A DNA stretch of 21,662 bases, taken from positions 1 through 21,662 of the forward strand of contig JBHIAE010000049.1 in assembly GCA_046758445.1 (NCBI GenBank), in the 5' to 3' direction. The notes beneath the pieces are model-generated. The model did not search any database. It was not told where the DNA came from and saw nothing but the letters and a program-made list of their open reading frames with translations. Below are positions 78 through 21,662 of the stretch, in pieces. Position 1 is the stretch's first letter. Every line of letters begins with the position of its first letter. This DNA is from Candidatus Thorarchaeota archaeon. GTDB lineage: Archaea > Asgardarchaeota > Thorarchaeia > Thorarchaeales > Thorarchaeaceae. The position numbers and the translations under genes are program-made.

Positions 78-1424
78 ATGGCGATGGCGAGGACGAGAAT
101 CATCATCATGGGTGCGGCGGGTCGTGATTTCCACAACTTCAACGTGTTCTTCAGAGATAATGAGGAATACGAGGTTGTCGCCTTCACTGCAGAACAGATC
201 CCCGGAATCGGAGACAGAATGTACCCTCCGGAACTCTCAGGCAAGATGTATCCAGAAGGCATCAGGATATACCCAGAGGAGATGCTACCGGAGCTGGTTG
301 AGAAGTTTGACGTAGAGCAGTGCATTCTAGCCTATTCTGATCTCTCGTATGATACCGTCGGCCACAAGATTGCCTGGGTCAATAGCATTGGTGCTGATAT
401 TCGACTCATGGGAACCGAAACGACGATGATCAAGAGTAAGACGCCTGTGGTTGCAATCTGTGCAGTTAGAACTGGTTCTGGAAAGAGCCAGACCTCCAGG
501 CGAGTGAATCAAATCCTTGTCGATATGGGTCTAAAGCCTGTGAACATAAGGCATCCAATGCCCTATGACCCTGACCTGAGAACCCAGATTCTGCAGCGCT
601 ATGAAACGCTCAAGGACCTGGACAAGTACAATTGCACTATTGAGGAGAGGGAGGAGTATGAGCCGATGATCAACATGGGGGTGATTCTCTACGCAGGTGT
701 TGATTACGGTGAGATTCTCGAAAAGGCCGAACAGGAGGCAGATGTCATCACGTGGGACGGCGGCAACAATGACTTCCCGTTCTACGAGCCCGACTTGCTG
801 ATAGTGCTAGCAGACCCGCATAGGCCGGGCCATGAGATCTCATACTATCCGGGAGAAACGAATCTGAGAATGGCTGATGTCGTCATAATAAACAAGGTTG
901 AGACCGCTGACTATGACTTTGTTGAGGAGGTAAGAGACAATATCATGGATGTCAATCCTGAAGCCATTATCATCGAGGCTGCCTCGCCTGTCAGGGTCGA
1001 AGACTGGCAACTCATCAGAGGAAAGAGAGTTCTCGTGGTTGAAGATGGCCCTACAGTAACTCACGGAGAGATGCCCTACGGGGCAGGATATGTTGCTGCA
1101 CGCAAGGCTGGAGCCACCATTATTGATCCCCGGCCTTTCGCTGTTGGTTCCATCAAGAAGACCTTTGATAAGTATATGCACCTTGAAGACGTCCTACCTG
1201 CAATGGGGTATGGAAAGAAACAGATGAAAGAACTGGAGGACACCATCAACAAGGCGGACGTCGATGCTGTTGTAATCGGGACTCCGATTGACCTAGCCGG
1301 CCTAATCAAGATTAACAAGCCAAGTGTGCGAATCAGGTACGACCTTCAAGAAATCAGCAAGCCTGACCTGGTTGATGTCCTTTCCGAGTTCGTAGAAACA
1401 CAGAGGCTGACGACAACAGTCTGA
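78..1424 (+). CDS. arcE: COG2403 P-loop enzyme (annotated as GTPase or cyclic 2,3-diphosphoglycerate synthetase-like); most like arginine synthetase ArcE
   Basis: N-terminal IIIMGAAGRDFHNFN, P-loop AVRTGSGKS, RHPMPY, WDGGNND, VEDGPTxTHGxMxxGAG and LPAMGY motifs. SD AGGAG at 73-77 spaces better to ATG 84. Family call is firm; the specific function is inferred. Confidence 0.75.
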   Translation: MAMARTRIIIMGAAGRDFHNFNVFFRDNEEYEVVAFTAEQIPGIGDRMYPPELSGKMYPEGIRIYPEEMLPELVEKFDVEQCILAYSDLSYDTVGHKIAWVNSIGADIRLMGTETTMIKSKTPVVAICAVRTGSGKSQTSRRVNQILVDMGLKPVNIRHPMPYDPDLRTQILQRYETLKDLDKYNCTIEEREEYEPMINMGVILYAGVDYGEILEKAEQEADVITWDGGNNDFPFYEPDLLIVLADPHRPGHEISYYPGETNLRMADVVIINKVETADYDFVEEVRDNIMDVNPEAIIIEAASPVRVEDWQLIRGKRVLVVEDGPTVTHGEMPYGAGYVAARKAGATIIDPRPFAVGSIKKTFDKYMHLEDVLPAMGYGKKQMKELEDTINKADVDAVVIGTPIDLAGLIKINKPSVRIRYDLQEISKPDLVDVLSEFVETQRLTTTV

Positions 1425-1520: not shown

Positions 1521-2465
1521 TCACCACAACTGCTGCGAGGTTTCTACATCTCTACTCTCTAGGTCTCGATAGAGCACGGCTTGGAAGACGTAGGGAATCG
1601 CGGTGAACAATAGTCCAGCTATCATTCCGGGGATCAGGAGTCCTATCACTCCAAAGCCGAGAACAAGGCCGAAGAGAAACACGCCCACAATGAGGCCGAG
1701 CACTATTGCCACTATGCCCAGAACTATCTGACCAACAAATACGTGCCAGAACTGGCCTCCAGTGAGTTCAAAAGCTCGTCTCAGAGACCCGATCGCGGAC
1801 TTGTCCTCAGCAATCACCACAGCGGCAACTGGCGCAAATCTTACCCCGACATAGACTACCAAGATGAATGTCACCAAGATCAGTACGGATGCTGTGGCTA
1901 GGGCTTCGAGAGTCAAGGGAACAAGTAGGATGTACATTAGAGCAGGCATGAACAGTGCTGCGCTTATGATTCCAACTAGGATCTGTGCAATTATCAACGT
2001 ACCAGCACGGCCCATGGCGAAGCCTACGCTCGACCCCATTTCAGCCTGACGAGAGCCGTAGTCGTCCAAGGAGTACTTTATCGACGCCCCCGCCAAGATG
2101 GCGTATACGACCATGCCAACTAACATCAGAAGAAGGCTCCCAGTGATGAAGGTATTGAGCACGTCGGGAGTAGGCGGACTCTCAAGCATTATCAGGCTAT
2201 AGAGTCCGAAAAAGAAGGAGAACGGATCCGTGCCGAGATAGGGCACTAAGTCAACCGCCAAGGCGAGGTCTTGAAAGAGCATCCAGAGTGCAACGAATTG
2301 GACAACGTTGAACAAAGCGGCCAGCACTCCAATTATCACGAGGAAAGCGAAGATGTTTCTCGCCCACACTGAGAGCGTTCTAGAAACAAGACCCGTCGCA
2401 CTCACCACATAGTCGTAGCGAGGAGCTTCAGGCTGTTCTATGCCTGGTCCTGAATCTATCTCCAT
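1521..2465 (-). CDS. Polytopic membrane protein, GPDPase membrane-domain/YciC-like
   Basis: About 6 long hydrophobic segments; family-type pattern 'PVAAVVIAEDKSAIGSLRRAFELTGGQFW' and C-terminal 'AVLYRDL'; SD AGGTGG upstream. Confidence 0.7.
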   Translation of the reverse strand: MEIDSGPGIEQPEAPRYDYVVSATGLVSRTLSVWARNIFAFLVIIGVLAALFNVVQFVALWMLFQDLALAVDLVPYLGTDPFSFFFGLYSLIMLESPPTPDVLNTFITGSLLLMLVGMVVYAILAGASIKYSLDDYGSRQAEMGSSVGFAMGRAGTLIIAQILVGIISAALFMPALMYILLVPLTLEALATASVLILVTFILVVYVGVRFAPVAAVVIAEDKSAIGSLRRAFELTGGQFWHVFVGQIVLGIVAIVLGLIVGVFLFGLVLGFGVIGLLIPGMIAGLLFTAIPYVFQAVLYRDLESRDVETSQQLW

Positions 2466-5015: not shown

Positions 5016-5726
5016 CTACTGTGTTTGTCCCCACTCATTACCTGTCGCAATGAGAATCAAGCCTATGACTATTAGTCCAGGTGCTAGCACCCCTGAGATT
5101 GTGTAAGATCCCGCAAACACAACGTCAGCAAGGACGTGTCGGGCGGCGTGAATCACTCTGCCCGCAAACAACACAAAGAAGCCAAGTCCCAATAGAAGGT
5201 TGGACTTCCTGAGTATACCACCTGATTGCCATGCCAAATACCAGAAGAGCAATGGGATGAACAATGCATAAACGGCTCCAGCACCTCCGGACAATGCCTG
5301 TCGGGTAAGTGTTTCAAGCGGAAGAAGTCCGAGAACAATACCAATGACCACAGCTGGGACGGCGAACAGTATCTCCGCCCAACGTTTGCCAAAGATCATG
5401 AAGGCAGCTGTTGCAGATAACACCGCAAGAGCCATCCACTGGAAGAATGCACCGGCACTCAACCAGGGTGTGTGGTCTGGAAGTAGTGGCGTAAAGCCTC
5501 CACCATACAAGGAAGTTGCATCAGCATAGAAGTCTCCAACAAAGTAGAAGCTCCGTCCTATAGCGAGCAATAGGAAGAAGAGGGCCATAGCCAGTTGGAA
5601 TGGATTCCTAGTCTTCCTGTATCGGAAGAACAGAAGAAAGATGAAGATGAAGAAATAGTAGCCAACGACTAAGAACCAAAGTCCAATGTGGACTTCTCTA
5701 ATCACCATATCGATGGTCTGTATCAT
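5016..5726 (-). CDS. Stand-alone 7-transmembrane protein
   Basis: Seven hydrophobic helices by eye and no cytoplasmic output domain. ATG 5726 has a TAGGAG SD (ORF track starts at 5753). Confidence 0.7.
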   Translation of the reverse strand: MIQTIDMVIREVHIGLWFLVVGYYFFIFIFLLFFRYRKTRNPFQLAMALFFLLLAIGRSFYFVGDFYADATSLYGGGFTPLLPDHTPWLSAGAFFQWMALAVLSATAAFMIFGKRWAEILFAVPAVVIGIVLGLLPLETLTRQALSGGAGAVYALFIPLLFWYLAWQSGGILRKSNLLLGLGFFVLFAGRVIHAARHVLADVVFAGSYTISGVLAPGLIVIGLILIATGNEWGQTQ

Positions 5727-5821
5727 TGTGCTCGCTCCTAACGAGTCGCTCACCGTGTGATGACGTTCTGTTCGCTCACCGACAAATAAGTGTATTCTGG
5801 GCCACTGGCCTATTCCTCAAT

Positions 5822-8752: not shown

Positions 8753-9688
8753 TTGACATCAGAAGAAACTTGCAGATTTCTCTCAATCTCGAAGTCTGGA
8801 CATTCATGCAAACTAAGAAACCAGATCCTGGCAAGGTCTGAAGTAGAGGCGAAATGCATCAAAACGAACTTGGCTGTGATTTGTGTCGACGCCTATACTG
8901 CCTTGGCAAAGGGCCAGGAAGCGGTTAAAGCAAACAGCACAGATGCATTCCTATGGTTGGTCGAATCAGCGAATCAGTTCGAGAACCTAGGAGAAACTGA
9001 CAATGCAATAATGGCAACCGTCAAGACGATAGACCTCGCATTGAAGATGAATCTGATTGAGAAAGGGTATGAGGTATTCCGATACTCGAGATCAATGTTT
9101 GAATCCGGTCTTGCTAGGAATGACCCCTCCCTTGCGGACCCGGCCCTTAAACAGATTCTTGTATCAGAGGGGCAGAAGCTATTGGCCGCAGCTCGGAAGG
9201 CCCATGAAGGCTCAGCAATGGCGGACATGCAGGCAGAGCTCAAGGCGAGCATTCTTACGGGAGTAAGTTTGAAGAAGGTCGAGAAGGAAGAGGCTGAGAA
9301 GCTGGTCATCAGTCATGGTAGATCACTGTACACGAAGAAATCAACTGAATACAAGGAGGGTGCTGACACCTACCTAGCATCCGGCATAGTTCAAAATGCC
9401 ATTGTATTCGCGTGCTTGGGTGCCTTAGCCGACCTAATGCTAGGATTGCCAAAGGAAGGTCTCCAGTTCTTGAGTGAATTCACCGAACAGTCCGGCAAGA
9501 AGGAGGAGTTCCTTGCCAACAAGTGCTTTCAATGGACTAAGCTAGTGTTCTCAGGTCTGGTCAAGAGAGATGTCGATGCCATTGAACGAGCAAGAACGCT
9601 CTTCCTGAATGTCCCTTTTAGCTTCAAGGACGACATGGAGTTTGCTAGGCGTGTCATGGAGTCTGTGCGTAGAAGGATTAGTCAATGA
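8753..9688 (+). CDS. Helical-repeat (TPR/SNAP-like) protein with N-terminal 4-Cys segment
   Basis: 311 aa; helical hairpin repeats; four Cys in the first 44 aa; overlaps the convergent methyltransferase gene by 11 nt. Confidence 0.65.
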   Translation: MTSEETCRFLSISKSGHSCKLRNQILARSEVEAKCIKTNLAVICVDAYTALAKGQEAVKANSTDAFLWLVESANQFENLGETDNAIMATVKTIDLALKMNLIEKGYEVFRYSRSMFESGLARNDPSLADPALKQILVSEGQKLLAAARKAHEGSAMADMQAELKASILTGVSLKKVEKEEAEKLVISHGRSLYTKKSTEYKEGADTYLASGIVQNAIVFACLGALADLMLGLPKEGLQFLSEFTEQSGKKEEFLANKCFQWTKLVFSGLVKRDVDAIERARTLFLNVPFSFKDDMEFARRVMESVRRRISQ

Positions 9689-11021
9689 TGCGCAATCTGG
9701 CAATGAAGAAGGCGTTGGAATCATGTCTATGAGGAAACAGCCTGACTGCCTTTTCTGAACAATTGAAACCATCATATCCTCTTGAACCATCAATCGGGAT
9801 CTCCAATAGTTCGAAGCTATGGCGAGTCATGGCTGAGTCGATCTGAGATTCGCCCTCATGTGGTAAGAGTGAGCAGGTCGCATAGACAATCTCTGTCCCT
9901 GGACGGTCAGCATAAGCGTCAAGAACTCCATCGAGAATCTTATTTTGGATTGACATCAAGCTGAACAATGTTTGCTTGTTCAGGCGCCATTTGAAGGAGG
10001 GGTGACTCCGAAGCATGCCAGTGGATGAGCAAGGTGCGTCGATGAGAATCTTATCTGCGTCACGGACTGGTGCTTCTGCAGCATCTGCCATTAGGAAACT
10101 AACATCTTGGCAACCAAGAGAATCGCAGCGTCTCTTCGCCACCTCCAGTCGCTTCGGATTGATGTCGGTAGCGTCAAGCTGACCCTCTAAATTCATGAAT
10201 TCCCATAAGAGCTGTGTCTTCATGCCAGGAGCCGCACAAGCGTCCCAGATTCTCATTCCAGGCTGTGGGTCAAGAGCGCGCACTACCTCGACGCTACCCT
10301 TGTCTTGGATCAATACTTGACCACTGGTGAATTCTGAGGAACTAAACAGCCTGTCGACACAATCAACTACCTTGTATAGATTCGGAATGCCTACCTCTGG
10401 CGTCAGCCTGACATCCTTCTTCTCCAAGCTCTTGATGACGTTCTCATGACCCTCAAGGAGCCTGTTAACGCGCAAGTAGTAGTTTCGTAGTCCATTGTTA
10501 TGATTCATCAGTGCCAATGCGTCGTCGTGCCGAAGGTTCTCAAGCAATAGTTCAACCAAGAATGTTGGATGAGATAGCTTCACGCTTAGCGCATTGATCG
10601 GCTTGAGGCGACGCACAGCTGCCTCTAAATCGAGTTCTAGAACACGCCTAGTTGTTTCAAACAAGTGGGAAGCTCTCCCGAGAAGCCTGGTCCGAATCTT
10701 CTCCAACGAAGTGTTGAGCCACCTGCCCTCATATGTTGCAAGACGGAGCAGACTCCGGTCTCTTTGACTAATCTCAGAGAAACTCCTACGTTCAAGAGCT
10801 CGGGCAACAATGTAATCGATTGTGTTGAGAAACTTTACTACGCCTAGACTTCTGGACCTTACATAGCCCCTTACGTCGTCCCGCATCGCCCTTTCAGACT
10901 CGGCCGACCGCACAAGCATTCGTATAGACTTCGGAAACTCGGTATACTTCGAAAGAATATCAACAACGATGTCCTTTGCGACACCGATGTCAACAAGTTT
11001 CACCGCTTGGTTCAACTCCAA
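9678..11021 (-). CDS. RsmB/NOP2/Sun RNA cytosine-C5 methyltransferase with NusB-like N-terminal domain
   Basis: IQD, DACAAPGMKT, ILIDAPCSSTG, VYATCS (both catalytic Cys), FFIARL; N-terminal 'IDYIV...RSLLRLATYE'. Confidence 0.92.
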   Translation of the reverse strand: MELNQAVKLVDIGVAKDIVVDILSKYTEFPKSIRMLVRSAESERAMRDDVRGYVRSRSLGVVKFLNTIDYIVARALERRSFSEISQRDRSLLRLATYEGRWLNTSLEKIRTRLLGRASHLFETTRRVLELDLEAAVRRLKPINALSVKLSHPTFLVELLLENLRHDDALALMNHNNGLRNYYLRVNRLLEGHENVIKSLEKKDVRLTPEVGIPNLYKVVDCVDRLFSSSEFTSGQVLIQDKGSVEVVRALDPQPGMRIWDACAAPGMKTQLLWEFMNLEGQLDATDINPKRLEVAKRRCDSLGCQDVSFLMADAAEAPVRDADKILIDAPCSSTGMLRSHPSFKWRLNKQTLFSLMSIQNKILDGVLDAYADRPGTEIVYATCSLLPHEGESQIDSAMTRHSFELLEIPIDGSRGYDGFNCSEKAVRLFPHRHDSNAFFIARLRIID

Positions 11022-11096
11022 TAGAGCTCAGAGTTAGTGACTAGTCAACACTGCGATTCTCCTCATATGAACCCTGAGTTGCCCTATATAGACTAG

Positions 11097-11582
11097 CTAG
11101 AGCATCCTCTCGTACATCTGCACCAGCATACCCTCTATCTGTTCATAGGGCTCACCCCAGGGGCGAAAGCCGAACTTCTTCATAAGCCGCTCGCTAGACT
11201 TTTGGCCTACAAGTATGTTGCAGTAGTTCCGTTCGCAGCCGTGAGCCCTACCGTATTCTGCAAACTGGATGTACATGGCTGAAGCCAGACCTGTGCCTTC
11301 GCACTGGGGGCTGACGGTCTGGTGTTCGCCAAAGAGACCTTTCTCAGTAATCTTGGCCTTGTACACACCAACGAGTCTTCCACCCAGACGACTACCGAAA
11401 TAGTGGTATCCTTGGCGCATGTCTTCAACAACCTGTTGTGGAGTATACATCCTCCTTTCTCGCCAAGACTCAGGATACTCGGTTGCCAATGGCCAGACTT
11501 CCTTAAAGAGTTCAGAGATCTCTTGAGCATCGTCCTCGCTAAGCTCGACTATGAGAATCTCGTCTTCAGGGATCTCGGCCAT
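11097..11582 (-). CDS. GNAT family N-acetyltransferase
   Basis: Motif A-like 'TVSPQCEGTGLASAM' and C-terminal 'SERLMKKFGF'. Start probably ATG 11582 (ORF track: 11636). Confidence 0.8.
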   Translation of the reverse strand: MAEIPEDEILIVELSEDDAQEISELFKEVWPLATEYPESWRERRMYTPQQVVEDMRQGYHYFGSRLGGRLVGVYKAKITEKGLFGEHQTVSPQCEGTGLASAMYIQFAEYGRAHGCERNYCNILVGQKSSERLMKKFGFRPWGEPYEQIEGMLVQMYERML

Positions 11583-11647
11583 GGTTAGTCCCATCTGGGG
11601 AAGCAGAAGTGTAACATAAACCTCTGCGTATGTCAAGATTCGTCAAT

Positions 11648-12766
11648 TCAAGAAACACTGGCGGCCCAATCATAGGCCTCTTGGATTGGAGTGCACCCTC
11701 CACACAAGTGACAGCCTGCAGCGGTTTTGGAGGGATTGATGTCCCAGCGGTGTAGAATCCTTCCGACTTCCTTGTAGAGTTCCACTGACTGTTCCAGACT
11801 GCCAGCATATGATGGCACGTAGTCTGCAAGTTGGCTGCCGGTTGCCGGACGAATCGGGGCCACAATGGGCAAGACCCCCATCTTTGCTAGTTCTTCTACC
11901 AAGCCAAGTGTTGTTTCAGTCCTCTCTCCAAGCCCCTGAAGGATGAAGGTGCTAACGTTTCCCCTACCAAAGAATTTCAAAGCAGATACCCAGCTCTGCC
12001 GGTAGAGGTCCAATGGGCCGTAACCGTATTTTCCCGGACAGATCTTCTCACGGACGGATTCGTCAGCACTCTCGATATGCAGCCCAATCGCGTTAGCGCC
12101 GGCTTTTGCAAGCTCCTCGATGACACGCTGGTCTCTTGGAGGCTCAATCTGGACTCCAATGGGTATGTCGCTAGACTCTCTAATGCGTTTCACAATAGGA
12201 ATCAACCTTTCAGCCCCCATCTCACTTGAGTCATGAGGAGTTCCAGTTGTCAAGAGAACATCAGTGATTATTCCTTCAGACTCGGCAACGCTTACAACCT
12301 CTGCAATCTGATCGGGTTGCTTTTCCAGCGGTGTATCGCCGCTCAGGTATGAGGTAGGTATCGTGCAGAACTTGCACTGTTCACCACCATCCCAATACCG
12401 ACAGGCCTGATACACTGTGGTGGCCAGAGTCGAGTTCCCGTGGAGCAGAGCTATTTGACCGTAGGGCACTCCGTCCTTTGTTGTGCAATCATAGAAGTTG
12501 GGCCGCGGAACAGTGCGAAGCTGTATGTTTCCGTCATAAAGCCAGACAGAAGGGTCTCCTGTTGAACGAAGGGGCGCAGAACCAAAACGTTCAGCCATCT
12601 CGCCTCGGCGAATCGGAACGCCGCACGAACGGCCGTTTGGGAGAAGGAAGTATCTGGCACCCACAGGACCAGCTCCTCCCTTCCTTCCAGACGCTTCGCT
12701 CTCTGGAAGAGTAGCACCTTCTGTAAGGAGCCTTACCTTTAGTCGAAGGTGGTCTTCTGCGTCCAT
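11648..12766 (-). CDS. Radical SAM protein, MSMEG_0568/NitD-like family
   Basis: GRKGGAGP, 'DGVPYGQIALLHG..TLATTVYQAC', extended Cx8Cx2C cluster motif, 'GNVSTFILQGLGE', C-terminal AGCxxCGGC. Confidence 0.85.
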   Translation of the reverse strand: MDAEDHLRLKVRLLTEGATLPESEASGRKGGAGPVGARYFLLPNGRSCGVPIRRGEMAERFGSAPLRSTGDPSVWLYDGNIQLRTVPRPNFYDCTTKDGVPYGQIALLHGNSTLATTVYQACRYWDGGEQCKFCTIPTSYLSGDTPLEKQPDQIAEVVSVAESEGIITDVLLTTGTPHDSSEMGAERLIPIVKRIRESSDIPIGVQIEPPRDQRVIEELAKAGANAIGLHIESADESVREKICPGKYGYGPLDLYRQSWVSALKFFGRGNVSTFILQGLGERTETTLGLVEELAKMGVLPIVAPIRPATGSQLADYVPSYAGSLEQSVELYKEVGRILHRWDINPSKTAAGCHLCGGCTPIQEAYDWAASVS

Positions 12767-12805: not shown

Positions 12806-13924
12806 TCACCTTTGGTCCTTTTTGGACTTTTGAGCCACGCGTACCAGCTCAGGAAGGTCCAAGACCTTGAGGTCTGATTGTGTTTGGGACACGAACATGT
12901 TCTTGCAGAATGGGCAAGAAGTGACAAGGATGCTGGCTTCAACGTGCTTTGCATGTCGTATTCTCTCGGCCCCAATGGTCTTCGCCTTTTCGGGAAACAG
13001 AGTTCTAAGACCAGCTCCGTTGCCGCAGCACATTGCATTGTCACCATGTCGTTCCATCTCAACAAACCTACTCCCTGTTATCTTGTTTAGTATCCTTCTC
13101 GGCTGATCGTAGATTCCGCAGTGCCTGCCCAGATGGCAAGGATCGTGATACGCGACGTTTCCTTCGAACTCTCCCACCGGTAGGTCATCAATGTGTGCGT
13201 AAAGGAGCTCAGCGACGTGTTTCACCGGCTTATTGATCTTCAGTCCATGTAAGGGATAGTCCTTTGTGAGGACTCTGTAGCAACCGGGGCAAGTGACAAG
13301 GATCTCGTCAGCCTCCACAGAATTGAATACCTCAACATTGTGTCGTGCCTGTTCTAGCGCTGTTTCCACAAATCCAGTCCTTAGAAGTGGAGACCCACAA
13401 CACCACTCTTCTGATGATACAACGACTGTGTAGCCTAGACTAGCCAGAACTGATACAGCGTCCTGTGCGATTTCTTTCTCACGATAAGCTGCGGTGCACC
13501 CTGAGAAGTAGGCGATCTTCGTTTCACCTTCTCCCTGAATCGAAAGCCAGTTGTTCCTTTCAGAGTGCTTCTCGTTGAAGGGATTATGGTGCTCTTTCAC
13601 TGCAGACTCAAGTTTGCTCAGTTCGGCTGGATGCCTGCCCTCGGTCACGAGGCGGATTCGAGTAGTTTCTACAATGTCTGCAACATCGATTTCAGGAAGA
13701 CACCATGTGAGGCAATGACTGCACTCAAGACACATATAGAGAACCTCAATTCCTCTCTCATCCAGAGAACGGATATTCTTGGCATCCTGATGAACTAGCA
13801 GACTCCTTCCGTGCGGAGTGGGCGAGTCAGATCTCCAGGCGAAGAACGTTGGACAGACATGTCTGCACATCTTTCTGCAAGCTGCACACATACGAGATTG
13901 CCTTTCCACCTCTTTGAGGTCCAC
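12806..13924 (-). CDS. Fe-S oxidoreductase with 4Fe-4S dicluster plus two CCG domains (HdrD/GlcF/GlpC-like)
   Basis: CAACRKMCRHVCP, CLECSHCLTWC, FSGC, WCCG, TCPGC, YHDPCHLGR, MCCG, TSCPFC. Confidence 0.88.
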   Translation of the reverse strand: MDLKEVERQSRMCAACRKMCRHVCPTFFAWRSDSPTPHGRSLLVHQDAKNIRSLDERGIEVLYMCLECSHCLTWCLPEIDVADIVETTRIRLVTEGRHPAELSKLESAVKEHHNPFNEKHSERNNWLSIQGEGETKIAYFSGCTAAYREKEIAQDAVSVLASLGYTVVVSSEEWCCGSPLLRTGFVETALEQARHNVEVFNSVEADEILVTCPGCYRVLTKDYPLHGLKINKPVKHVAELLYAHIDDLPVGEFEGNVAYHDPCHLGRHCGIYDQPRRILNKITGSRFVEMERHGDNAMCCGNGAGLRTLFPEKAKTIGAERIRHAKHVEASILVTSCPFCKNMFVSQTQSDLKVLDLPELVRVAQKSKKDQR

Positions 13925-15352
13925 TTACTCAAGCACCCCCAGACCGAGCTTGCCCGGATTCATGATACAGTTGGGGTCTAGGACGTCCTTGATTTGCCTA
14001 AGAACCTCGAATGCACTTCCGAGTTCGTTCTTAGTGTAAGTGCTTCGCGTCAGACCAACACCGTGCTGATGACTCATTGTGCCACCAGCCTGCAGACATG
14101 CTTCCACAGCATCATCCCAAATCTCTCTGTACTTCGCCCAGGCAGTTTCTGCGTCAGGCTGCTGTTGGAAGAAGCTCATGTAGATGCTTCCTCCGCTAAG
14201 GTACATGTGTGAGAAGTGGGTCAATGGAAGTGCTCCGTGTGCCTCTATTGTCTTCTTCATTGCACGATATACTTCCTCAAGATTCTCGTAGGTCGCCACA
14301 ACATCGATTGTGTCCTCAAGAGCATACTTCAGTGAGCGAATTCTCGTCGGATAGTACATGTCGTATCTATGCTCCCACCAGCGTCTCGAGGGGCCTTCTC
14401 CGTAGTCCGTACCTCCACTTTCCTCACATATCCGAACACACTCCTGTTCATCAATCTCAATCTTCTCTGGTTTTCCGTCAAAGCCCAGCAGTAGCATGCA
14501 CTGTCCTTCTTCAACATCAGTGTGCGGAGCCACAAATATGGCCGTGTCTTCAGCATCGTAGAACCGAACGATCGATGGTGTGATTCCCTCGCGGAATATC
14601 AGTCGGATTGCCTCGATACCACTGTGTACATCAGGAAATGCAAATGATTTGAAACGTCGCTCACGTGGGATAGGAAACAATTGGAGTGTAGCCTCGGTTA
14701 TCACTCCAAGCGTTCCTTCAGAGCCGATGAATAGCTGACGTAGGTCCGGACCAACTGAATGGCGAGGTACGGCTTTGGTTCGGATGATGCTACCGTTCGG
14801 CAATACAAATTCAAGTCCTAGAGTGAGATCCTCTATCTTCCCGTAGAGAGATGATAATGAACCAGCGGAGCGCGTTGCTACGAACCCGCCTACATTTGAA
14901 GCCCTCAAGGAGGTTGGAGTGTGACCTGTGGTATAGCCATGACGATTCACTTCTTCTTCAAGGTCTATTCCAACCATTCCAGCTTGCACTCTTACGAGGA
15001 GAGACTTGTGATCAATTTCTATAATGCTGTCCATCCGCTTGAGATCGAGCTGGATGCCTCCATAGATGGGAAGAGTTCCCCCACTGACACCAGCACCTCC
15101 CCCAACTGGAGTCACAGGGACTTTGAGATCGTTGGCAATCTTGAGAACTCCTGCGACCTCTTCGGTATTCGCCGGAAACACGACCATATCTGCAAGAGGC
15201 AACGGTTCACCGTCCCGGATCTTTGTTGCGCTCAATGACCAGGCATCGTGCGCGTTCAGAACCATGTCGGTTTCGTGAACCGTGATATGGTCATCACCGA
15301 CAACATCTGCTATTCTCTTGACAAGCTGGGCCTTCTTTTTGGCTGAAATCAA
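13925..15352 (-). CDS. FAD-linked oxidoreductase (VAO/PCMH fold), alkyl-DHAP synthase-like
   Basis: PVGGGAGVSGG, GHTP, GGFVATRSAG..S..YGKIED, GPDL..LFIGSEGTLGVITE, HFSHMY..GGSIY, GGTMSHQHGVG, LDPN.IMNPGKL. Start probably TTG 15352 after an AAGGAG SD (ORF track: 15403). Confidence 0.85.
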   Translation of the reverse strand: MISAKKKAQLVKRIADVVGDDHITVHETDMVLNAHDAWSLSATKIRDGEPLPLADMVVFPANTEEVAGVLKIANDLKVPVTPVGGGAGVSGGTLPIYGGIQLDLKRMDSIIEIDHKSLLVRVQAGMVGIDLEEEVNRHGYTTGHTPTSLRASNVGGFVATRSAGSLSSLYGKIEDLTLGLEFVLPNGSIIRTKAVPRHSVGPDLRQLFIGSEGTLGVITEATLQLFPIPRERRFKSFAFPDVHSGIEAIRLIFREGITPSIVRFYDAEDTAIFVAPHTDVEEGQCMLLLGFDGKPEKIEIDEQECVRICEESGGTDYGEGPSRRWWEHRYDMYYPTRIRSLKYALEDTIDVVATYENLEEVYRAMKKTIEAHGALPLTHFSHMYLSGGSIYMSFFQQQPDAETAWAKYREIWDDAVEACLQAGGTMSHQHGVGLTRSTYTKNELGSAFEVLRQIKDVLDPNCIMNPGKLGLGVLE

Positions 15353-15359
15353 GGTTCTC

Positions 15360-16595
15360 TCACTCCTTTGATAGTCGCTGAGCGATGAAGACTGTGAGAT
15401 CATCGACTTCGACGGAGCTGCCAGTCTTGAAGAGTCTGCTCTCGATATGCGCCGTGCACAGTGGACACGGCGTTACTACTTTCTGGGCTCCCGTCCTTTC
15501 AATTGCGGCAAGATTCTCATCAACGACAGCATCGGCCACATCGCTTGAATGGTAGGCAACCAGACCGCCACCACCACAACATGAGTCCTCAGCGTCAGAG
15601 ATCGAAACCCTCACTCCTGGGGCAACAGTAAGAATGCTAATCGCGTGATTCATGATCTGGCGTGAAGTGTGCCTTATGAGATGACATGGATCGTGTACCG
15701 TTACTTTCACATCGCTGAACTTGCGACCAGCCTTGAATGCCTCTTCAATTCGCTCCAATCCAATCTCTTCTGCGAGGAAATCGAGCATATGATAGACGGG
15801 CACTCCCCATTTGTCACGCACACTGATATCTGAGAGATTCGAGGTACATCCCGCGCACGTCGTGACAATCTTCTTCACACCAAGCTGTTTCAGTTGACGC
15901 TGCAAAGTGTCAGCAAGAGTCCTTCCAGTCTTGTCGTCACCCATAAGGCGTGAAGGTAGGCCACAGCAACTCATCTCCTCTAGCAAGGTAAAATCAATTC
16001 CGAAGTAGTCTAGAACAACCTTGGCAGCCTCTCGGACCTCCTGAGCTCGCTCTTCAGCCTGGCATCCGGGGTAGAATAGAACCTCCGAACTCTTCGCAAC
16101 TCTATTAGGAATGAGTGGCAGCCCCAGACGTTCCAGCCTCATGTCGCGACTCTCAACCTTTTCCTCCACGTCCTCCCAAGGTTCGAAGGCGAGATTGTGC
16201 TTGGTGATGGTTTCACGTACCACGTGGAGGCCCTTAGGAACCAGATCAGGTCTGTGTTCGAATATGCTGGTACGCACAATGTTCACCACTTCAGGTATGT
16301 CGACGTTCTTGGGACATACCTCTCTGCAAGTTCCACAGCCGGTACAAATATAGACGATATCGCCTGTTGACCAAAACTCTGGCGGCGAGCGGCTCAATTC
16401 TGCTGCGATGCTTCTCGGGCCAGAGAAGCGATCCACACCCACTGCGGCTACGACAGGACAGTGGTTGATACAAAGCCCACAGTTTATGCAGCGTTCGACC
16501 GATCTGATGGTGTCAAGCTCATCTTCATGATACGGTGTGATTTTCTCCTCTTTCAGAGTCTTCTTTACGAACTCGTAGGCCCCTTCCTCTGTCAA
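15360..16595 (-). CDS. glpC: Anaerobic glycerol-3-phosphate dehydrogenase subunit C-like Fe-S/CCG protein
   Basis: CINCGLCINHCP, CTGCGTCREVCP and two CCG domains; lies directly after glpB. Confidence 0.8.
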   Translation of the reverse strand: MTEEGAYEFVKKTLKEEKITPYHEDELDTIRSVERCINCGLCINHCPVVAAVGVDRFSGPRSIAAELSRSPPEFWSTGDIVYICTGCGTCREVCPKNVDIPEVVNIVRTSIFEHRPDLVPKGLHVVRETITKHNLAFEPWEDVEEKVESRDMRLERLGLPLIPNRVAKSSEVLFYPGCQAEERAQEVREAAKVVLDYFGIDFTLLEEMSCCGLPSRLMGDDKTGRTLADTLQRQLKQLGVKKIVTTCAGCTSNLSDISVRDKWGVPVYHMLDFLAEEIGLERIEEAFKAGRKFSDVKVTVHDPCHLIRHTSRQIMNHAISILTVAPGVRVSISDAEDSCCGGGGLVAYHSSDVADAVVDENLAAIERTGAQKVVTPCPLCTAHIESRLFKTGSSVEVDDLTVFIAQRLSKE

Positions 16596-17966
16596 CTAGC
16601 CTCCCTCCTTAACTATGCCCGTTGCGTAGTGTCCCACTGCATAACCCGTGCTCAACGACACGCCAAGACCGCTCTTCTCAGACGGGAAGTTGTGCCCAGC
16701 CAGAATCGAGCCTGCACAGAAGAGATTCTCAGCGGCATATTCACCTTCCTGATCTATGGGCCTAAATGCCGCATCAACGCTCAGCCCTGCGCCCAAGAAG
16801 GGCTGTCCCCTAGGACTTAGTGCCAGAGTATTGGTTTGCCTCAGCGGCAACGTTTCAGCGGCTGAATAGAACTCCCCGGTCACTGCCATCAGACCAAAGA
16901 CAGTTTCACGAAAGCCGTTCTGATCGCCTTCAATGCCGCCTCCTATGAACTTCCCGGTGGCCAACACGACTGCCTTTGGTGTGACTTCAAGACTTCTTCT
17001 TGGACTTCTCGCCTTGACCCTCATCACCTGACGTTCTTCTATTGAGCCGGAAACGACCTCATGGCCAATAAGGAGCCTTCCTCCTGCTTCAAGGTACATT
17101 TGGTCAAGGGCTTTCTGGAGCCTCAGCCCTGGCACTGAGGGAGGAAAAGCAAGAAGTTCAAACACAATTGCTCCCAACTCATCCTGCATCTTCTTTGCAT
17201 TCTTTACTGACGATTCAACTCCGAGGACTGGAGGAAGGGCGACATGAGTGGCACCCACTTGGTCGATGTGCTTCTTCAGAGAATCCACTAGTTCTGTAAT
17301 CGAGGCATCATGATCAAAATGCCTAGCAAGCTCAATTGAGGACACGTTGTACTGTTTTCCGTGTGGAGTAATGTCAACGATGCAGTGTCCTACCTTGTGT
17401 GGTGGTTCGCTCCTCTGCATTTGTCGCTCAAGGAACGCCTTCGATGCAACCGATGGATGGAAATCTGGATGACCATGGAATCCAGCAAACAGAAGGACAC
17501 TATCATCCGCCTCCATCAGGCCGCCGTTCCACATTGTTTTCTGAACCAGACAGGTCGGTTTGGTGGTCCCGAGGACTGTAATGGGGTGTACGTTGGTTTC
17601 GAAACCTCCATACAACGGCGCTATGGAATCTTTCAACTGACCCTGAAGCCACTCAATCGGAGATCTCACACTCTCGATGACTCTTGTCAGGATATTGTCC
17701 GTCTGTGTTTCCTGAAAAGCAAACATCCCGTAGGGATGGAACGGGTGGATTTCTGTGATTAACTGAAGACCTTCAATGGGTGCAGAGAAGGGAATCAAAG
17801 TCGCTGGAAGGTATCCGATGACATCTACGGCGCCTGACGAGTAAGCTGTTGCACCCTGGCCTTTCCGAAGAACCAGCGTGTTCAATCCGTTCTCAGCAGC
17901 TATCGTTCCAGCAACTAGCCCTGCCATTCCACCACCAATGACAAGAACCTCAACGTCCAGGTCCAA
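16596..17966 (-). CDS. glpB: Anaerobic glycerol-3-phosphate dehydrogenase subunit B
   Basis: VIGGGMAG, GQGATAYSSGAVD, TVLGTTKPT, PPSVPGLRL, VLATGKFIGGG, NLFCAGSILAG, EKSGLGV. Confidence 0.9.
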   Translation of the reverse strand: MDLDVEVLVIGGGMAGLVAGTIAAENGLNTLVLRKGQGATAYSSGAVDVIGYLPATLIPFSAPIEGLQLITEIHPFHPYGMFAFQETQTDNILTRVIESVRSPIEWLQGQLKDSIAPLYGGFETNVHPITVLGTTKPTCLVQKTMWNGGLMEADDSVLLFAGFHGHPDFHPSVASKAFLERQMQRSEPPHKVGHCIVDITPHGKQYNVSSIELARHFDHDASITELVDSLKKHIDQVGATHVALPPVLGVESSVKNAKKMQDELGAIVFELLAFPPSVPGLRLQKALDQMYLEAGGRLLIGHEVVSGSIEERQVMRVKARSPRRSLEVTPKAVVLATGKFIGGGIEGDQNGFRETVFGLMAVTGEFYSAAETLPLRQTNTLALSPRGQPFLGAGLSVDAAFRPIDQEGEYAAENLFCAGSILAGHNFPSEKSGLGVSLSTGYAVGHYATGIVKEGG

Positions 17967-19634
17967 CTACATCCACTCCTCCCACGGTTTGAGGTCGTAG
18001 TCAACCTTCGCACGGTCAAGGTTCCCGACACATGCGTAGATGCCCTGTGTCAATTCCTCTTGGGCCAGTTGCTCACCTCGAATCGGTTGGCGGATACCCT
18101 TCCATCTCTCGGCCCGAAAGTCCAGGATGTCAACTTGGAAGTCTTCACCGCTGAGTTCCAGCTCTTCAGCCAGAATTGCAGCAGCCTTGTACGTACAGAA
18201 CGTCCCTTGACATGGCCCAGTGCCTAGACGCACCCTGCGTCTGATATCATTCAGCGTCTGGGGAAATTCCTCTCTGATGGTATAGCGAATCTCTGCCTCC
18301 AGGATAGGCTCGCAAGTACAGACCGTCGTCTTCCATTCAGGATAGTCCCGCGTCAGCTCTAGTACCTTAAGCATCTCTGTGCCTCGCCGAGCCCGCATCC
18401 TCTCCAGAGTGTGTTGAGGAATGCCATACTCTGTCGAAAGCGGCAGGATGTCAACGTCATCCTCGTTACCCGGCAGAGGCTTTTCGTGAGTGGTGGTCTT
18501 CTTGTCAACATTCAGCCTTGTACATACAAGGTCAGTCGCTGCCTCTGCCATGTGTCTACACATGACAAGCTTTCCGCCTGTGAAGCTCACAAGACCAGAA
18601 GCACCTTGAGATTCATGATCGATGACCTCATAGCCCCGAGTCACATCTCCCTCTGGAATCTTCCATGTGGGTACTAGCGGTCTAACGCCTGCCATCGTGC
18701 GGATGATTCTTGCTTCTCTGATAGAAGGAATGACCCATTCCATGCTTTGCAGAAGATACTCGATCTCGTCATGTGTTGCGACAAGTGTATCAGGATCTTC
18801 CCAAGTGTCAAGTGCTGTTGTTCCCAGCAACGTTGTGTTCTCGTGCGGGAATAGATAGATCATCCTCCCATCGACGGCTTTCGCAATGATTCCTACGTTC
18901 ACCACGCGTCGGTCTAGAATTATATGAGCGCCCTTGTTCGTTCTCAACTCTAGCTCCGCCCCTGCAAGTGAAGCGATCTTGTCCGCCCAAGGTCCACCTG
19001 CATTGACTATCGTTTTCGTCTTGACGCTCTCAACTTCACTGGTAACTCGATTGTAGAAGACTACAGACTCTATCTTCTCTTCCTGTTTGGTGATCTCAAC
19101 GACTTCGCAATATGTGCGAATCTCCGCACCATGTATCTTGGCATCAAGAGCCTGGAGTAGACATAGACGGAATGGATCAATGAAAAACTCCTCAAAGTAC
19201 ATGCTCGAGATTATGTTGGGATTCAACATGGGCTCGATCTTCATTGCATCCTCAGGTTCAAGAAACAAGACAGGAGGAACATCTCGAGTTTCTGCACGCT
19301 TCGAGTACTCCGCGGCAAAGTTCCCTCCGCTAGAGAGATCGCTCAGTTCTAGAATAGGGGTCAAGATCGGGTTCTTCATTATGATGTGTCGTGCAATCCG
19401 GTTGAGATGGACAACCTCCTCAGAACAAATGTCGACAATCTCAGGTTCATCCATGTACTTCAGTCCTGAAGATATCATCCCCGCACAAGTGCCGACTGTG
19501 GCAGATGCGATGTCATCGCGCTCGAGTAGGAGCGTTCGGAGACCGCGCATGGCGCAGTCCCGCGCCACGGAGGTGCCCGTGCTTCCGCCGCCAATCACAA
19601 CCACATCAAAGTCCGAATCATTCATTCCGCTCAC
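17967..19634 (-). CDS. glpA: Anaerobic glycerol-3-phosphate dehydrogenase subunit A-like flavoprotein with BFD-like [2Fe-2S] tail
   Basis: VIGGGSTG..ARDCAMRGL, DPFRL, VNAGGPWAD, KGAHI, AGVRPL, GGKL...R.MAE, VCTCE...RVRLGTGPCQGTFC. Confidence 0.9.
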   Translation of the reverse strand: MSGMNDSDFDVVVIGGGSTGTSVARDCAMRGLRTLLLERDDIASATVGTCAGMISSGLKYMDEPEIVDICSEEVVHLNRIARHIIMKNPILTPILELSDLSSGGNFAAEYSKRAETRDVPPVLFLEPEDAMKIEPMLNPNIISSMYFEEFFIDPFRLCLLQALDAKIHGAEIRTYCEVVEITKQEEKIESVVFYNRVTSEVESVKTKTIVNAGGPWADKIASLAGAELELRTNKGAHIILDRRVVNVGIIAKAVDGRMIYLFPHENTTLLGTTALDTWEDPDTLVATHDEIEYLLQSMEWVIPSIREARIIRTMAGVRPLVPTWKIPEGDVTRGYEVIDHESQGASGLVSFTGGKLVMCRHMAEAATDLVCTRLNVDKKTTTHEKPLPGNEDDVDILPLSTEYGIPQHTLERMRARRGTEMLKVLELTRDYPEWKTTVCTCEPILEAEIRYTIREEFPQTLNDIRRRVRLGTGPCQGTFCTYKAAAILAEELELSGEDFQVDILDFRAERWKGIRQPIRGEQLAQEELTQGIYACVGNLDRAKVDYDLKPWEEWM

Positions 19635-19675
19635 GACCTATGAGTACTCTTCTCCCTGACCTCCGGACCCACCAA

Positions 19676-21130
19676 TCAATAGTGTGCGAGTAATGTGGAG
19701 AGCTCAGACAGTAGCAGTTTCTCGAATATCTGGTACTTCTCTTCGTAGAGTGAAGCATTCTCAGGTATGGGCTGCCTCTTCTCTTCAACATGAAACATGT
19801 TTCCGATTGCTTCATTGAAAGAGCTGTAGACACCTGATCCGACAGCTGCAAGCATCGCCGCCCCGATGACGGTGGAGTCTCTTGACCTTGGAAGAACGAC
19901 AGTCTTGCCAGTGCAATCGGACATGATTTGACGCCAGAGAGGAGAGTTCGCACCACCGCCATCGATTCTTAGCTCCTCAAATTCCCGATCTAGCATCTCT
20001 TCCATCGTCTTGACATAGAACTGGATGCCGTGTCCGTTCCCTTCCATGATGGCTCTTGCTACATGGGCTTTCGTGTGTTCGAAACCTAGGTTGTACAATA
20101 TACCCTTGGTGAATGCCATGAAGGGGAAGAAGACCAGCCCCTCACTACCGGGAGGTACGTTCCTTGTAGACGCTTCAATCAGCTCGTAGATGTCTTCTTC
20201 ACCCTTCCCTGCAAGTGCTGCGTCAGCTTGGTAGTACTGATCACGGTACCATTTGAATGCCCATCCGGTTCCTGGGAGAACGCCCTCCAAAATCCAGCTC
20301 CCCGGAGTCGCACTAGGATTGCTGTACATCACGTACGGGTCTTCAATGTACTCGTCAGTATGCGTTATGACAAAAGTCCCGGTCCCAGTGGTTGCCTTTA
20401 CTACTCCGGTCCTGGTCGTTCCTGTGCCCAGAGCAGAGCATTGTTGGTCACCTGAACCCATGATCAACGGTGTTCCCTTGCGGAGTCCGGTGGCTTTCGA
20501 TGAGTCTGAAGTGATCTCTCCAATTACGGTTCCCGGCTCCACGATGTCCGCATACTTGCTTGCAGGGATTCCTGTTTCCTCACAGATCTCGTCTGACCAT
20601 TTCAGAGTTGAATGGTCTATGGGGCCAAACCTCGCATTGGATGGTTCTGTCACCATTGCACCACAAAGGCGATTGTATAGGTATGCATCCAGAGTGACAA
20701 ACTTGTGAGCCGCCTTGAATATCTTCGATTTGTTCTCTGACATCCACAGAATCTTCGTAAGAGACCTTCGGGGTCCAATTAGCTCTGCAAGTTCGTCCTT
20801 TCTCTTGCTTGTGCGATTGTCTGTCCATAGTATGGTGGGACCAAGTGGGTTTCCCTTCTTGTCTATAGGCGTAATGCAATCGCGAGTTGTTGCCATAACT
20901 GCCCCCACAACAGCCTCTGCTCCCGGCCCATACTCGGACAAGGCGCGTTGCATTGTTGTACAGGCTGTTCTCCAAAATGTATCCGCAAGTTGTTCGTGCG
21001 TCGCTAGTTCCCGTGGAGTAGGAGGATACTCCTCGTATGCTTTGCCCAGTTCGCGACCTTCCTCATCCACCAAGACCGACCGGGTGCCAGTAGTGCCAAT
21101 ATCAAAGACTGCAAAGACTCGCTGACTCAT
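19676..21130 (-). CDS. FGGY-family carbohydrate kinase (glycerol kinase/xylulokinase-like)
   Basis: FDIGTTGTRS, ILWTDNRT, KILWM, GDQQ, TGTGTF, VPPGSEGL, ARAIMEG, IDGGGANS.LW.QI. ATG 21130 follows an AGGTGA SD (ORF track: 21139). Confidence 0.9.
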   Translation of the reverse strand: MSQRVFAVFDIGTTGTRSVLVDEEGRELGKAYEEYPPTPRELATHEQLADTFWRTACTTMQRALSEYGPGAEAVVGAVMATTRDCITPIDKKGNPLGPTILWTDNRTSKRKDELAELIGPRRSLTKILWMSENKSKIFKAAHKFVTLDAYLYNRLCGAMVTEPSNARFGPIDHSTLKWSDEICEETGIPASKYADIVEPGTVIGEITSDSSKATGLRKGTPLIMGSGDQQCSALGTGTTRTGVVKATTGTGTFVITHTDEYIEDPYVMYSNPSATPGSWILEGVLPGTGWAFKWYRDQYYQADAALAGKGEEDIYELIEASTRNVPPGSEGLVFFPFMAFTKGILYNLGFEHTKAHVARAIMEGNGHGIQFYVKTMEEMLDREFEELRIDGGGANSPLWRQIMSDCTGKTVVLPRSRDSTVIGAAMLAAVGSGVYSSFNEAIGNMFHVEEKRQPIPENASLYEEKYQIFEKLLLSELSTLLAHY

Positions 21131-21236: not shown

Positions 21237-21662
21237 ATGTCAGACTATCCTGTTCACGTAGAAGTGGAGCCGGGTGTGCATCTCATACGAGGACTCAACA
21301 AGGCTCAATTCCCAGAAGCCAATTCTCTTCTAATCGATGATGAAATTCTCACCCTTGTAGATGCCGGCTCCGCCAGAGAACAGGTTGTGAGCACGATGAG
21401 AGACCTCGGACATAAGCCGGAGGACCTTGACAGAATCGTATTGACTCATTTCCACATCGACCACAAGGGACATGCAGAGCACTTCCGCGAGCTCTCTGAC
21501 TGTGAGGTCATCTGTCATCCGTTGTCAGATGAGGGCGTCAAGACGTTTGAGGGAATGGCCGGTTGCTGGGGGGTCGAACACCACAACAAGATTAGCGACT
21601 GGAAATCGTGGCTCCAGGGTTGGCTGCCTTATGTGACATCTGACTACGTAGTCACAGGACAT
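21237..21662 (+). CDS. Metallo-beta-lactamase fold hydrolase (5' part; runs off the window)
   Basis: My translation: MSDYPVHVEVEPGVHLIRGLNKAQFPEANSLLIDDEILTLVDAG...DRIVLTHFHIDHKG...; HxHxDH motif; open to the window end; TTATAG at 21206-21211. Absent from the ORF track because it has no stop in the window. Confidence 0.88.
   Translation, partial: MSDYPVHVEVEPGVHLIRGLNKAQFPEANSLLIDDEILTLVDAGSAREQVVSTMRDLGHKPEDLDRIVLTHFHIDHKGHAEHFRELSDCEVICHPLSDEGVKTFEGMAGCWGVEHHNKISDWKSWLQGWLPYVTSDYVVTGH

Follow-up and report, generated by a model that had tools for sequence, protein, structure and literature searches.

We have analysed a contig of 21,662 nucleotides (nt) from a Candidatus Thorarchaeota archaeon (JBHIAE010000049.1, assembly GCA_046758445.1), which is referred to below as the window. 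On its minus strand lie six genes, here named K, A, B, C, D and F, which encode a kinase, a predicted three-subunit glycerol-3-phosphate (G3P) dehydrogenase, a flavoprotein related to alkyldihydroxyacetonephosphate synthase (AGPS), and a putative iron-sulfur (Fe-S) partner of this flavoprotein. The genome is assembled in 113 contigs and is 92.7% complete. The six genes and, after them, three neighbours are as follows:

19676-21130, minus strand: K, kinase of the FGGY family, in an Asgard-specific clade (FGGY_N and FGGY_C domains)
17967-19634, minus strand: A, predicted GlpA-type catalytic flavoprotein of anaerobic G3P dehydrogenase (DAO, DAO_C and BFD [2Fe-2S] domains)
16596-17966, minus strand: B, GlpB subunit (TIGR03378, above cut-off)
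15360-16595, minus strand: C, GlpC-like Fe-S subunit (Fer4_8 and two CCG domains)
13925-15352, minus strand: D, flavoprotein with flavin adenine dinucleotide (FAD), in the YgcU-like short clade of the AGPS superfamily (FAD_binding_4 and FAD-oxidase_C domains)
12806-13924, minus strand: F, putative CCG Fe-S partner subunit of D (Fer4_8 and two CCG domains)
11648-12766, minus strand: radical SAM gene, MSMEG_0568-like (TIGR04043, 285 bits, cut-off 304)
11097-11636, minus strand: GNAT gene, next after the radical SAM gene and followed by RsmB
21237-21662, plus strand (divergent): gene of the metallo-beta-lactamase (MBL) fold, truncated by the contig end (Lactamase_B domain)

A preliminary description of the window had reported six co-oriented genes, with gaps of 41, 0, 0, about 7 and 0 nt, in a probable Asgard archaeon. 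We have re-read the open reading frames (ORFs) and their junctions, and this layout holds: all six genes are on the minus strand, and the gaps are 41 (K/A), 0 (A/B), 0 (B/C), 7 (C/D) and 0 nt (D/F). That is, B starts where A stops, C where B stops, and F where D stops. The domain content given there is matched by Pfam and NCBIfam hits for the six genes, and the nearest relatives are named Thorarchaeota or Promethearchaeota, which confirms the Asgard assignment. K starts with the ATG at 21130, from which the frame can be extended to a GTG at 21139. The start of D is a TTG at 15352, preceded by GGAG and placed 7 nt past the TGA of C; a reading of D with 492 amino acids (aa) is unlikely because its homologues are 474-479 aa long. 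After F, the radical SAM gene follows with a gap of 39 nt, and the co-oriented run extends beyond the six genes.

Conservation of the operon

A scan of species-representative genomes has yielded 63 loci of the Thorarchaeota type. As far as their contigs reach, all 63 are collinear with the order K-A-B-C-D-F-radical SAM-GNAT; 44 of them cover the whole of K to F, and 38 extend as far as GNAT. Outside this lineage, a Freyarchaeial chromosome carries K-A-B-C-D with F 3 kb downstream, the order A-B-C-D recurs in one further archaeon, and genomes of the Hel type hold D-F with a kinase of the K clade nearby. This arrangement of genes is not due to chance, and its recurrence outside Thorarchaeota indicates that the linkage predates the lineage. 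The preliminary description had named a synteny survey as a check, and the linkage is conserved in Thorarchaeota and also in Freya- and Hel-type genomes.

The MBL-fold gene keeps its position and orientation upstream of the operon in 41 Thorarchaeota-type loci. As for the radical SAM-GNAT pair, it is kept after F only in Thorarchaeota, and since it is absent from the Freya and Hel loci we have not counted it in the pathway. A radical SAM gene adjoining a D-like gene of Chloroflexi was considered as a counterpart of that in the window and was rejected, the two being unrelated (E 0.12). Between K and A, 29 other Thorarchaeota loci have a conserved ORF of 70-90 aa with no Pfam match (for example L003:5310-5582 and L031:5578-5790). 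In this genome and its two closest relatives the K-A spacer (19635-19675 here) is a bare gap of 41-55 nt with no ORF of this kind.

The kinase and the GlpABC-type complex

K falls below the cut-off of every NCBIfam equivalog model. It scores 222 bits with XylB, 219 with LsrK, the autoinducer-2 (AI-2) kinase, and 207 with gluconokinase, whereas the GlpK model TIGR01311 gives 156 bits against a cut-off of 590. Compared with E. coli GlpK, five of the seven glycerol-pocket residues are kept (R83, W103, D245, Q246 and F270), E84 is replaced by Asp, and the segment of Tyr135 is shortened, so that the pocket departs from that of GlpK at its end distal to the hydroxyl that is phosphorylated. In the kinase tree, the Thorarchaeota, Freya and Hel kinases form a clade of their own outside GlpK. 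Judged from these scores and this placement, K is not a GlpK orthologue. Previous work has likewise found that most glpK homologues of Loki- and Thorarchaeota are carbohydrate kinases, the few bona fide ones being Lokiarchaeal, and that glpA/D is present in these archaea (PMC6737245, Manoharan et al. 2019).

The genome has a second FGGY kinase (C8:54262-55839, L080), which keeps all seven glycerol-pocket residues of GlpK and is sister to the GlpK clade. Its gene is placed between a LarA-like gene and one for a NAD-dependent epimerase, far from any G3P dehydrogenase gene.

For A, the model TIGR03377 gives 432 bits (cut-off 553), and the identity is 33.6% to E. coli GlpA and 25.5% to GlpD. A keeps H233, T271, R317 and K354 of GlpD and has Lys for R54; the substrate roles of these residues we take to be those suggested by the GlpD structure. 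Where GlpD reads HGGLRY, A reads SSGLKY. The preliminary description had called the substrate motifs altered both in GlpA and in the kinase, for which it suggested a phylogeny, and the alignments and the tree agree with it on both. B passes the equivalog cut-off of TIGR03378 (218.9 bits, cut-off 174.15). In C we have found two [4Fe-4S] motifs and two CCG domains; its best NCBIfam model is TfrB (174 bits, below cut-off), and the GlpC models give 121 and 73 bits against cut-offs of 278 and 280. C is a paralogue of F, and both score highest with TfrB, then with LdhH and GlpC. According to a homologue search of the contigs, A-B-C is the sole G3P dehydrogenase of the GlpA/GlpD type in the genome. 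On the evidence of its sequences, A-B-C is probably a GlpABC-type G3P dehydrogenase. The genome also encodes two glycerophosphodiesterases, and no MIP channel (glycerol facilitator) was found in it at 92.7% completeness.

The GlpK-GlpABC systems of E. coli and Haloferax volcanii are alike in the A-B-C order, the domains, the close coupling of the genes, the key GlpD/GlpA residues and the upstream kinase gene. The operon here differs from them in its non-GlpK kinase, in SSGLKY for HGGLRY, and in the extra genes D and F that are coupled to glpC, while the Thorarchaeota genome differs in that neither a glycerol facilitator nor a clear quinone pathway was found in it. In a 2025 survey of archaeal G3P dehydrogenases (PMC11962113), a term search gave no mention of partner genes of the CCG or FAD-linked-oxidase type, nor of Asgard genomes.

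The peculiarities of K and A bring in a first alternative, namely that the operon serves C4-C6 polyols or ketoses in the manner of EryA and EryB. A polyol would be phosphorylated by K and oxidised by the GlpABC-like complex to a ketose 1-phosphate with a head like that of dihydroxyacetone phosphate (DHAP), and D-F would oxidise or rearrange the carbon beside this ketone. In Brucella, EryA is an FGGY kinase and EryB a GlpD homologue, which suits this idea, as do the higher scores of K on the xylulokinase, AI-2 kinase and gluconokinase models, its place outside the GlpK clade, its distally altered pocket, and the SSGLKY motif of A. On the other hand, B passes the GlpB cut-off, the order and coupling of A-B-C are those of true GlpABC, and this complex is the only G3P dehydrogenase of a genome whose two glycerophosphodiesterases would supply G3P; all of this counts against polyols. 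The gene contexts, which bear on the same question, are given further below.

The flavoprotein D and its partner F

Among solved structures, the top phmmer match of D is AGPS (2uuu, 206 bits), and the next ones, at 155-158 bits, are a putative oxidoreductase (3pm9) and D-lactate dehydrogenases. When the predicted structure of D (pLDDT 93) was searched with Foldseek, the top 27 matches were all mammalian AGPS, with TM-scores of 0.88-0.90 by query and 29% identity. The TM-score against mammalian AGPS is 0.90 by query and 0.79 by target, and against mouse LDHD it is 0.85 by query and 0.89 by target. R263 of D aligns to AGPS R352 (Dictyostelium) or R419 (guinea pig), and Y391 to Y508 or Y578, respectively. 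Among 50 family members this Arg is invariant and the Tyr is kept in at least 90%; both residues, R352 and Y508, are essential in Dictyostelium AGPS by mutagenesis, and the AGPS reaction is redox-neutral (PMC3509576). AGPS further has a loop of three histidines, His615-617, of which His616 and His617 are treated as active-site residues (PMC13019191). Here D reads SHQHGVG and AGPS SHHHGVG, so that the middle one (His616) is Gln. SHQHG is found in 120 of 120 Thorarchaeota homologues, and HHH in 126 of 150 representatives of the wider family.

D lacks other parts of AGPS. The Y[ILM]RD motif, which carries Arg447 (Dictyostelium numbering), is missing, and D reads YYPTRIR there. The alignment of D begins at residue 127 of the Dictyostelium or 180 of the guinea pig enzyme and skips 361-390 and 425-466. 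That is, D has neither the AGPS N-terminal domain (~125 residues in Dictyostelium, ~180 in guinea pig) nor the cap insert, the parts in which the gating helix and the lipid tunnel presumably lie. Overall, AGPS (also ADPS, EC 2.5.1.26; PDB 2uuu and 4bby) and D are alike in the VAO-type FAD domain, the cap, the catalytic Arg and Tyr and most of the His loop. They differ in length (584 and 658 aa for AGPS, 475 aa for D) and in that AGPS stands alone while D has a putative dedicated Fe-S/CCG partner. The partners of AGPS are a fatty acyl reductase (FAR) and DHAP acyltransferase, unlike which no acyltransferase or (fatty acyl) reductase gene was found in the window by domain searches; the preliminary description had likewise seen no acyltransferase or acyl-CoA reductase there.

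That description had gone on to suggest an ether-lipid substrate. In this second alternative, which concerns the catabolism or salvage of glyceryl ethers, K would phosphorylate a monoalkylglycerol, GlpABC would oxidise the product to alkyl-DHAP, and D would break or exchange the C1-O ether bond by chemistry at flavin N5. The idea gains from the catalytic Arg and Tyr and the two of three loop histidines kept in D, and from changes in K and A toward smaller residues at places where the O1 substituent would sit. It loses from the missing N-terminal residues, cap insert and Arg447 motif, and from the Gln at His616 throughout the Thorarchaeota homologues.

D was also compared with GlcD. At the columns of the GlcD metal ligands (H.GDGN.H and GEHG), E. 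coli GlcD reads HAGDGNMH and SGEHGIG, and D reads YLSGGSIY and SHQHGVG. Since the His/His/Glu metal-ligand motifs are gone, D should not be a 2-hydroxyacid dehydrogenase of the GlcD type, and a reading as D-lactate dehydrogenase was rejected because of these lost motifs and the AGPS residues standing instead. In its catalytic Arg and Tyr and in its His loop, D is of the AGPS type, as its first assignment as AGPS-like had implied.

This comparison touches a third alternative, in which two unrelated modules adjoin each other, K and GlpABC for glycerol, and D-F as a 2-hydroxyacid dehydrogenase of the D-lactate or glycolate type. D does reach 228 bits with the GlcD model, and its fold is close to mouse D-lactate dehydrogenase as well (TM 0.85, versus 0.90 for AGPS). 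In addition, the genome has several further pairs of a GlcD-like FAD-oxidase gene and a CCG gene, on contigs C18, C12, C5, C32 and C48, the largest group (at least five) being on C18. These pairs, however, are on other contigs, none near an FGGY kinase gene, and are only 24-27% identical to D, while D begins 7 nt after C stops and the link of D-like genes to FGGY and G3P-dehydrogenase genes recurs in many phyla. Together with the lost metal ligands, this makes the two-module idea very improbable in our view. A MenA-like prenyltransferase gene is found amid the GlcD-like and CCG pairs of C18 (C18:17020-17874; 106 bits, cut-off 102).

In architecture, D-F is the same as GlcDEF (glycolate dehydrogenase), YdiJ (D-2-hydroxyglutarate dehydrogenase) and LdhH, where a flavoprotein of the GlcD fold goes with a [4Fe-4S]/CCG module, either separate or fused. 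The difference is in the substrate site, which in D is AGPS-type and without the metal triad of the 2-hydroxyacid enzymes.

We have aligned about 50 family members and built a tree with GlcD as root, in which eukaryotic AGPS is not included. Two clades can be distinguished. The long clade (540-570 aa), from Bacteroidota, Desulfobacterota-type bacteria, Anaerolineae and Actinomycetota, keeps HHH as well as the Arg447 motif, which is kept only here, and matches Dictyostelium AGPS over the full length (313 bits). Its members stand with a GlpD-like gene and a YgcE-clade kinase gene, with no CCG gene. The short clade (475-490 aa) comprises E. coli YgcU, a group of Thermoplasmatota, Loki-type archaea and Hadarchaeota, a group of Halapricum, Dehalococcoidales and bacteria of the Planctomycetota-Verrucomicrobiota-Chlamydiota (PVC) superphylum, and the Asgard group with D. 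Its phmmer scores (313 versus 206 bits), the insert in common and the Arg447 motif, rather than the tree, would group eukaryotic AGPS with the long clade. D is placed in a YgcU-like clade that is sister to the AGPS-proper one; its identity to E. coli YgcU is 32.5% over the full length.

In E. coli, ygcU is grouped with genes for an electron-transfer flavoprotein (ETF; ygcQR), FixCX-like genes (ygcNO) and the FGGY kinase gene ygcE. This cluster (ygcNOPQRSUW-yqcE-ygcE) is like the operon here in having a short-clade flavoprotein, a link to an FGGY kinase (YgcE there, K here) and electron-transfer proteins. It differs in that the ETF (YgcQR) and the FixCX-like YgcNO stand instead of a CCG subunit, the kinase belongs to another FGGY clade, and there is no GlpABC within the cluster.

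Within the long clade, a compact operon of a Crp-like regulator, a GlpD-like protein, AGPS, a YgcE-clade FGGY kinase and an NnrU-like membrane protein is seen at L145:7519-13795 and about 25 other Bacteroidales loci. The AGPS of this operon is near-bona-fide (313 bits to the Dictyostelium enzyme, HHH and Arg447 motif kept), with no FAR or acyltransferase gene found nearby.

The tie between D and F is seen well beyond the window. In the short clade, the D-like gene is directly followed by a CCG gene at nearly every locus that is long enough. Among 92 D-like loci outside Thorarchaeota, a CCG gene occurs on the same strand within 6 kb in 30, all of them of the short clade, and in one protein (P0150) D is naturally fused to Fer4_8 and two CCG domains. 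When D and F were modelled as a complex, the ipSAE was 0.92, and that of the best control 0.00; in a calibration that is approximate, other alignments having been used here, 0.92 was attained by 58 of 80 solved complexes and by 2 of 110 mismatched pairs. The runs share at least 97% of contacts, with a partner pLDDT of 92. In the model, residues 11-77 of F, which include the Fe-S cysteines, sit on the FAD domain of D and on D 330-340, the loop that in AGPS carries Arg447. From the fusions and this complex model we infer that D and F are in contact. As D would thus have a dedicated electron-transfer partner and AGPS is redox-neutral, D-F should perform net redox chemistry, unlike AGPS.

Gene contexts and the suggested pathway

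We have looked at the neighbours of the 92 D-like loci outside Thorarchaeota. Within 6 kb, an FGGY kinase gene is present in 41 (39 on the same strand) and a GlpA/GlpD-like gene in 45 (all 45 on the same strand), and both kinds occur together in 27. The linked kinases fall into four FGGY clades, namely true GlpK, the Asgard K clade, a PVC/Dehalococcoidales clade near XylB, and the YgcE clade. Kinases of the true GlpK clade are linked to D-like genes in Halapricum, where the kinase is 51% identical to E. coli GlpK and the D-F pair stands between glpK and glpA, as well as in Thermoplasmatota, Hadarchaeota, one Loki-type genome (L119) and Acidimicrobiia. As to other neighbours, Dehalococcoidales have TRAP transporter genes and Halapricum has genes for MFS and cupin proteins, and ABC transporters occur in the family as well. 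UBP13 and Victivallaceae have genes for KduI/IolB, GFO/IDH/MocA, FSA/transaldolase, GH1 and GH2, and Thermoplasmatales have a DeoC-type aldolase. D-type proteins are also naturally fused to a PfkB sugar kinase (P0212), a Cof-type HAD phosphatase (P0187) or a second FAD_binding_4 domain (P0121/P0123, ~950 aa). No recurring lipid gene was found in the contexts examined outside Thorarchaeota. The contexts of the homologues are those of soluble substrates, i.e., sugars and glycerol, and not of lipids.

Several of these contexts return us to the C4-C6 polyol or ketose pathway. The short-clade trios of PVC bacteria adjoin the KduI/IolB, GFO/IDH/MocA, FSA/transaldolase and glycosidase genes, one metagenomic K-D-F trio stands beside an AP_endonuc_2 gene (EryC-like fold), and the PfkB fusion lies within a sugar cluster that has a DeoC-type aldolase. 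Against this, the kinases linked to D-F in four other archaeal lineages belong to true GlpK, and in domain searches neither the Thorarchaeota operon nor its immediate flanks showed an isomerase, epimerase or aldolase. Taking these points with those from K, A and B, we consider a C4-C6 substrate rather unlikely for the operon.

For the glyceryl ethers, the context evidence is of two sorts. The order of a kinase, a C2 dehydrogenase and an AGPS-type enzyme is chemically coherent, and the trio is widespread, also with proteins of the long clade. In addition, most Thorarchaeota genomes have genes that could suit a lipid: about 40 loci carry the divergent MBL-fold gene and a crotonase upstream of K, a thiolase and a DUF35-type protein lie beyond the crotonase in at least 19, and an aldehyde dehydrogenase (ALDH; Aldedh, 274 bits; L003:14275-16047) is inserted between GNAT and RsmB in most genomes. 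A thiolase and a DUF35 protein are, however, also the pair of the archaeal mevalonate pathway. The locus here has no ALDH, as GNAT and RsmB are adjacent (11021-11097), and its MBL gene is cut by the end of the contig. Neither crotonase nor thiolase/DUF35 nor ALDH occurs at the Freya and Hel loci. We have set the lipid-context argument aside, since these neighbours are conserved only in Thorarchaeota and none of them is in the window; the crotonase/thiolase/ALDH neighbourhood is weak, lineage-specific evidence. The divergent gene also stands between the upstream ones and the operon. A 2025 survey reports no plasmalogen pathway in Archaea (bioRxiv 10.1101/2025.10.10.681575), which counts against an ether substrate too.

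Overall, the ether-lipid substrate of the preliminary description is not supported, although its broader wording, 'or other substituted glycerol', may still apply: D has lost the AGPS N-terminal domain, the cap insert and Arg447, its Fe-S partner appears obligate whereas AGPS is redox-neutral (PMC3509576), it belongs to the YgcU-like and not the AGPS-proper clade, and its homologues stand among genes for soluble substrates. We regard ether catabolism or salvage as distinctly improbable. An equally long shot is the bolder variant that D-F is an anaerobic, redox-coupled form of AGPS chemistry which breaks the C1-O bond of 1-O-substituted DHAP and, with K and GlpABC, strips glyceryl ethers, including ether-lipid backbones, to DHAP in Asgard archaea. 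As improbable, and akin to it, is a role of D-F as a flavin/Fe-S enzyme that connects DHAP with the sn-glycerol-1-phosphate series of archaea.

We favour another explanation, with a probability of about 0.45: the operon would be the Asgard form of an operon for catabolism of the glycerol type, with D-F as an additional redox enzyme of two subunits that performs a redox step of a C3 glycerol branch. K would phosphorylate glycerol or a close glycerol-like compound, and A-B-C would oxidise the resulting ester of the sn-glycerol-3-phosphate type to a DHAP-type ketone. D-F would be a heterodimer of an FAD protein with an AGPS-type active site and of F docked on its FAD domain. It may carry out net redox chemistry on a soluble C3 compound, namely a small phosphorylated ketol or polyol of the DHAP or glycerol-phosphate level, the electrons probably passing through F to, or from, a putative acceptor. 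In AGPS, the Arg, the Tyr and the His loop enolise the DHAP moiety onto flavin N5, and the Arg, Tyr and His residues retained in D would fit an alpha-hydroxyketone phosphate. Because of its apparent wiring to an Fe-S partner, we take D to be most likely a redox enzyme of glycerol-phosphate metabolism, as yet uncharacterised, and not an enzyme of ether lipids. One idea we have considered is that GlpABC oxidises and D-F reduces (e.g., DHAP to acetol phosphate), which would give an internal electron sink via the two CCG subunits. Whatever probability remains after these readings belongs to something not yet conceived.

A number of points weigh against this glycerol reading. The substrate of K may be a compound other than glycerol, because K is of a non-GlpK type while the kinase on C8 keeps all the glycerol-binding residues. 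K-D-F trios without a G3P dehydrogenase exist in PVC bacteria and Dehalococcoidales, amid sugar and sugar-acid genes, which means that the substrate of the family may exceed C3 or vary by clade. The His loop has a change of His to Gln that is fixed in all 120 Thorarchaeota homologues, and an AGPS-type active site is unexpected in a simple hydride-transfer dehydrogenase. As for an acceptor, no futalosine-pathway gene (MqnA/D) was found in the genome, and the quinone route is limited to the borderline MenA-like gene. Finally, a literature search gave no functional paper on ygcU, ygcE or the AGPS-like genes of bacteria and archaea, and since no enzyme of the YgcU-like clade has been characterised, the substrate of D-F is a guess.

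To our knowledge, the AGPS active site has been characterised in one role only, the formation of the ether bond in ether lipids of animals and myxobacteria, which involves no net redox change. In D, the AGPS catalytic residues appear in a smaller protein that seems wired to an Fe-S subunit, and genes of the D type are tied to glycerol kinases and G3P dehydrogenases in many bacteria, E. coli (ygcU) among them, and, on the archaeal side, in Asgard genomes, Thermoplasmatota, Hadarchaeota and a haloarchaeon. The combination of an AGPS-type site, Fe-S wiring and this genetic tie suggests that the metabolism of glycerol or polyol phosphates has a step not yet described. This step may also comprise the electron outlet that is missing for the oxidation of G3P in anaerobes without quinones. 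Such a step can be tested in tractable hosts, e.g., E. coli and haloarchaea. The Asgard genes carry the label 'alkyldihydroxyacetonephosphate synthase' at the Joint Genome Institute (JGI), which invites wrong inferences on ether lipids and the lipid divide, and a result on function would correct it.

Elsewhere in the window, three ORFs have no Pfam match at E 1e-4, namely 78-1424 (plus strand, 448 aa), 5016-5753 (minus strand, 245 aa) and 8753-9688 (plus strand, 311 aa). A further ORF at 1521-2465 (minus strand, 314 aa) shows a sub-threshold match to the membrane domain of glycerophosphodiester phosphodiesterase (22 bits, cut-off 29.6).

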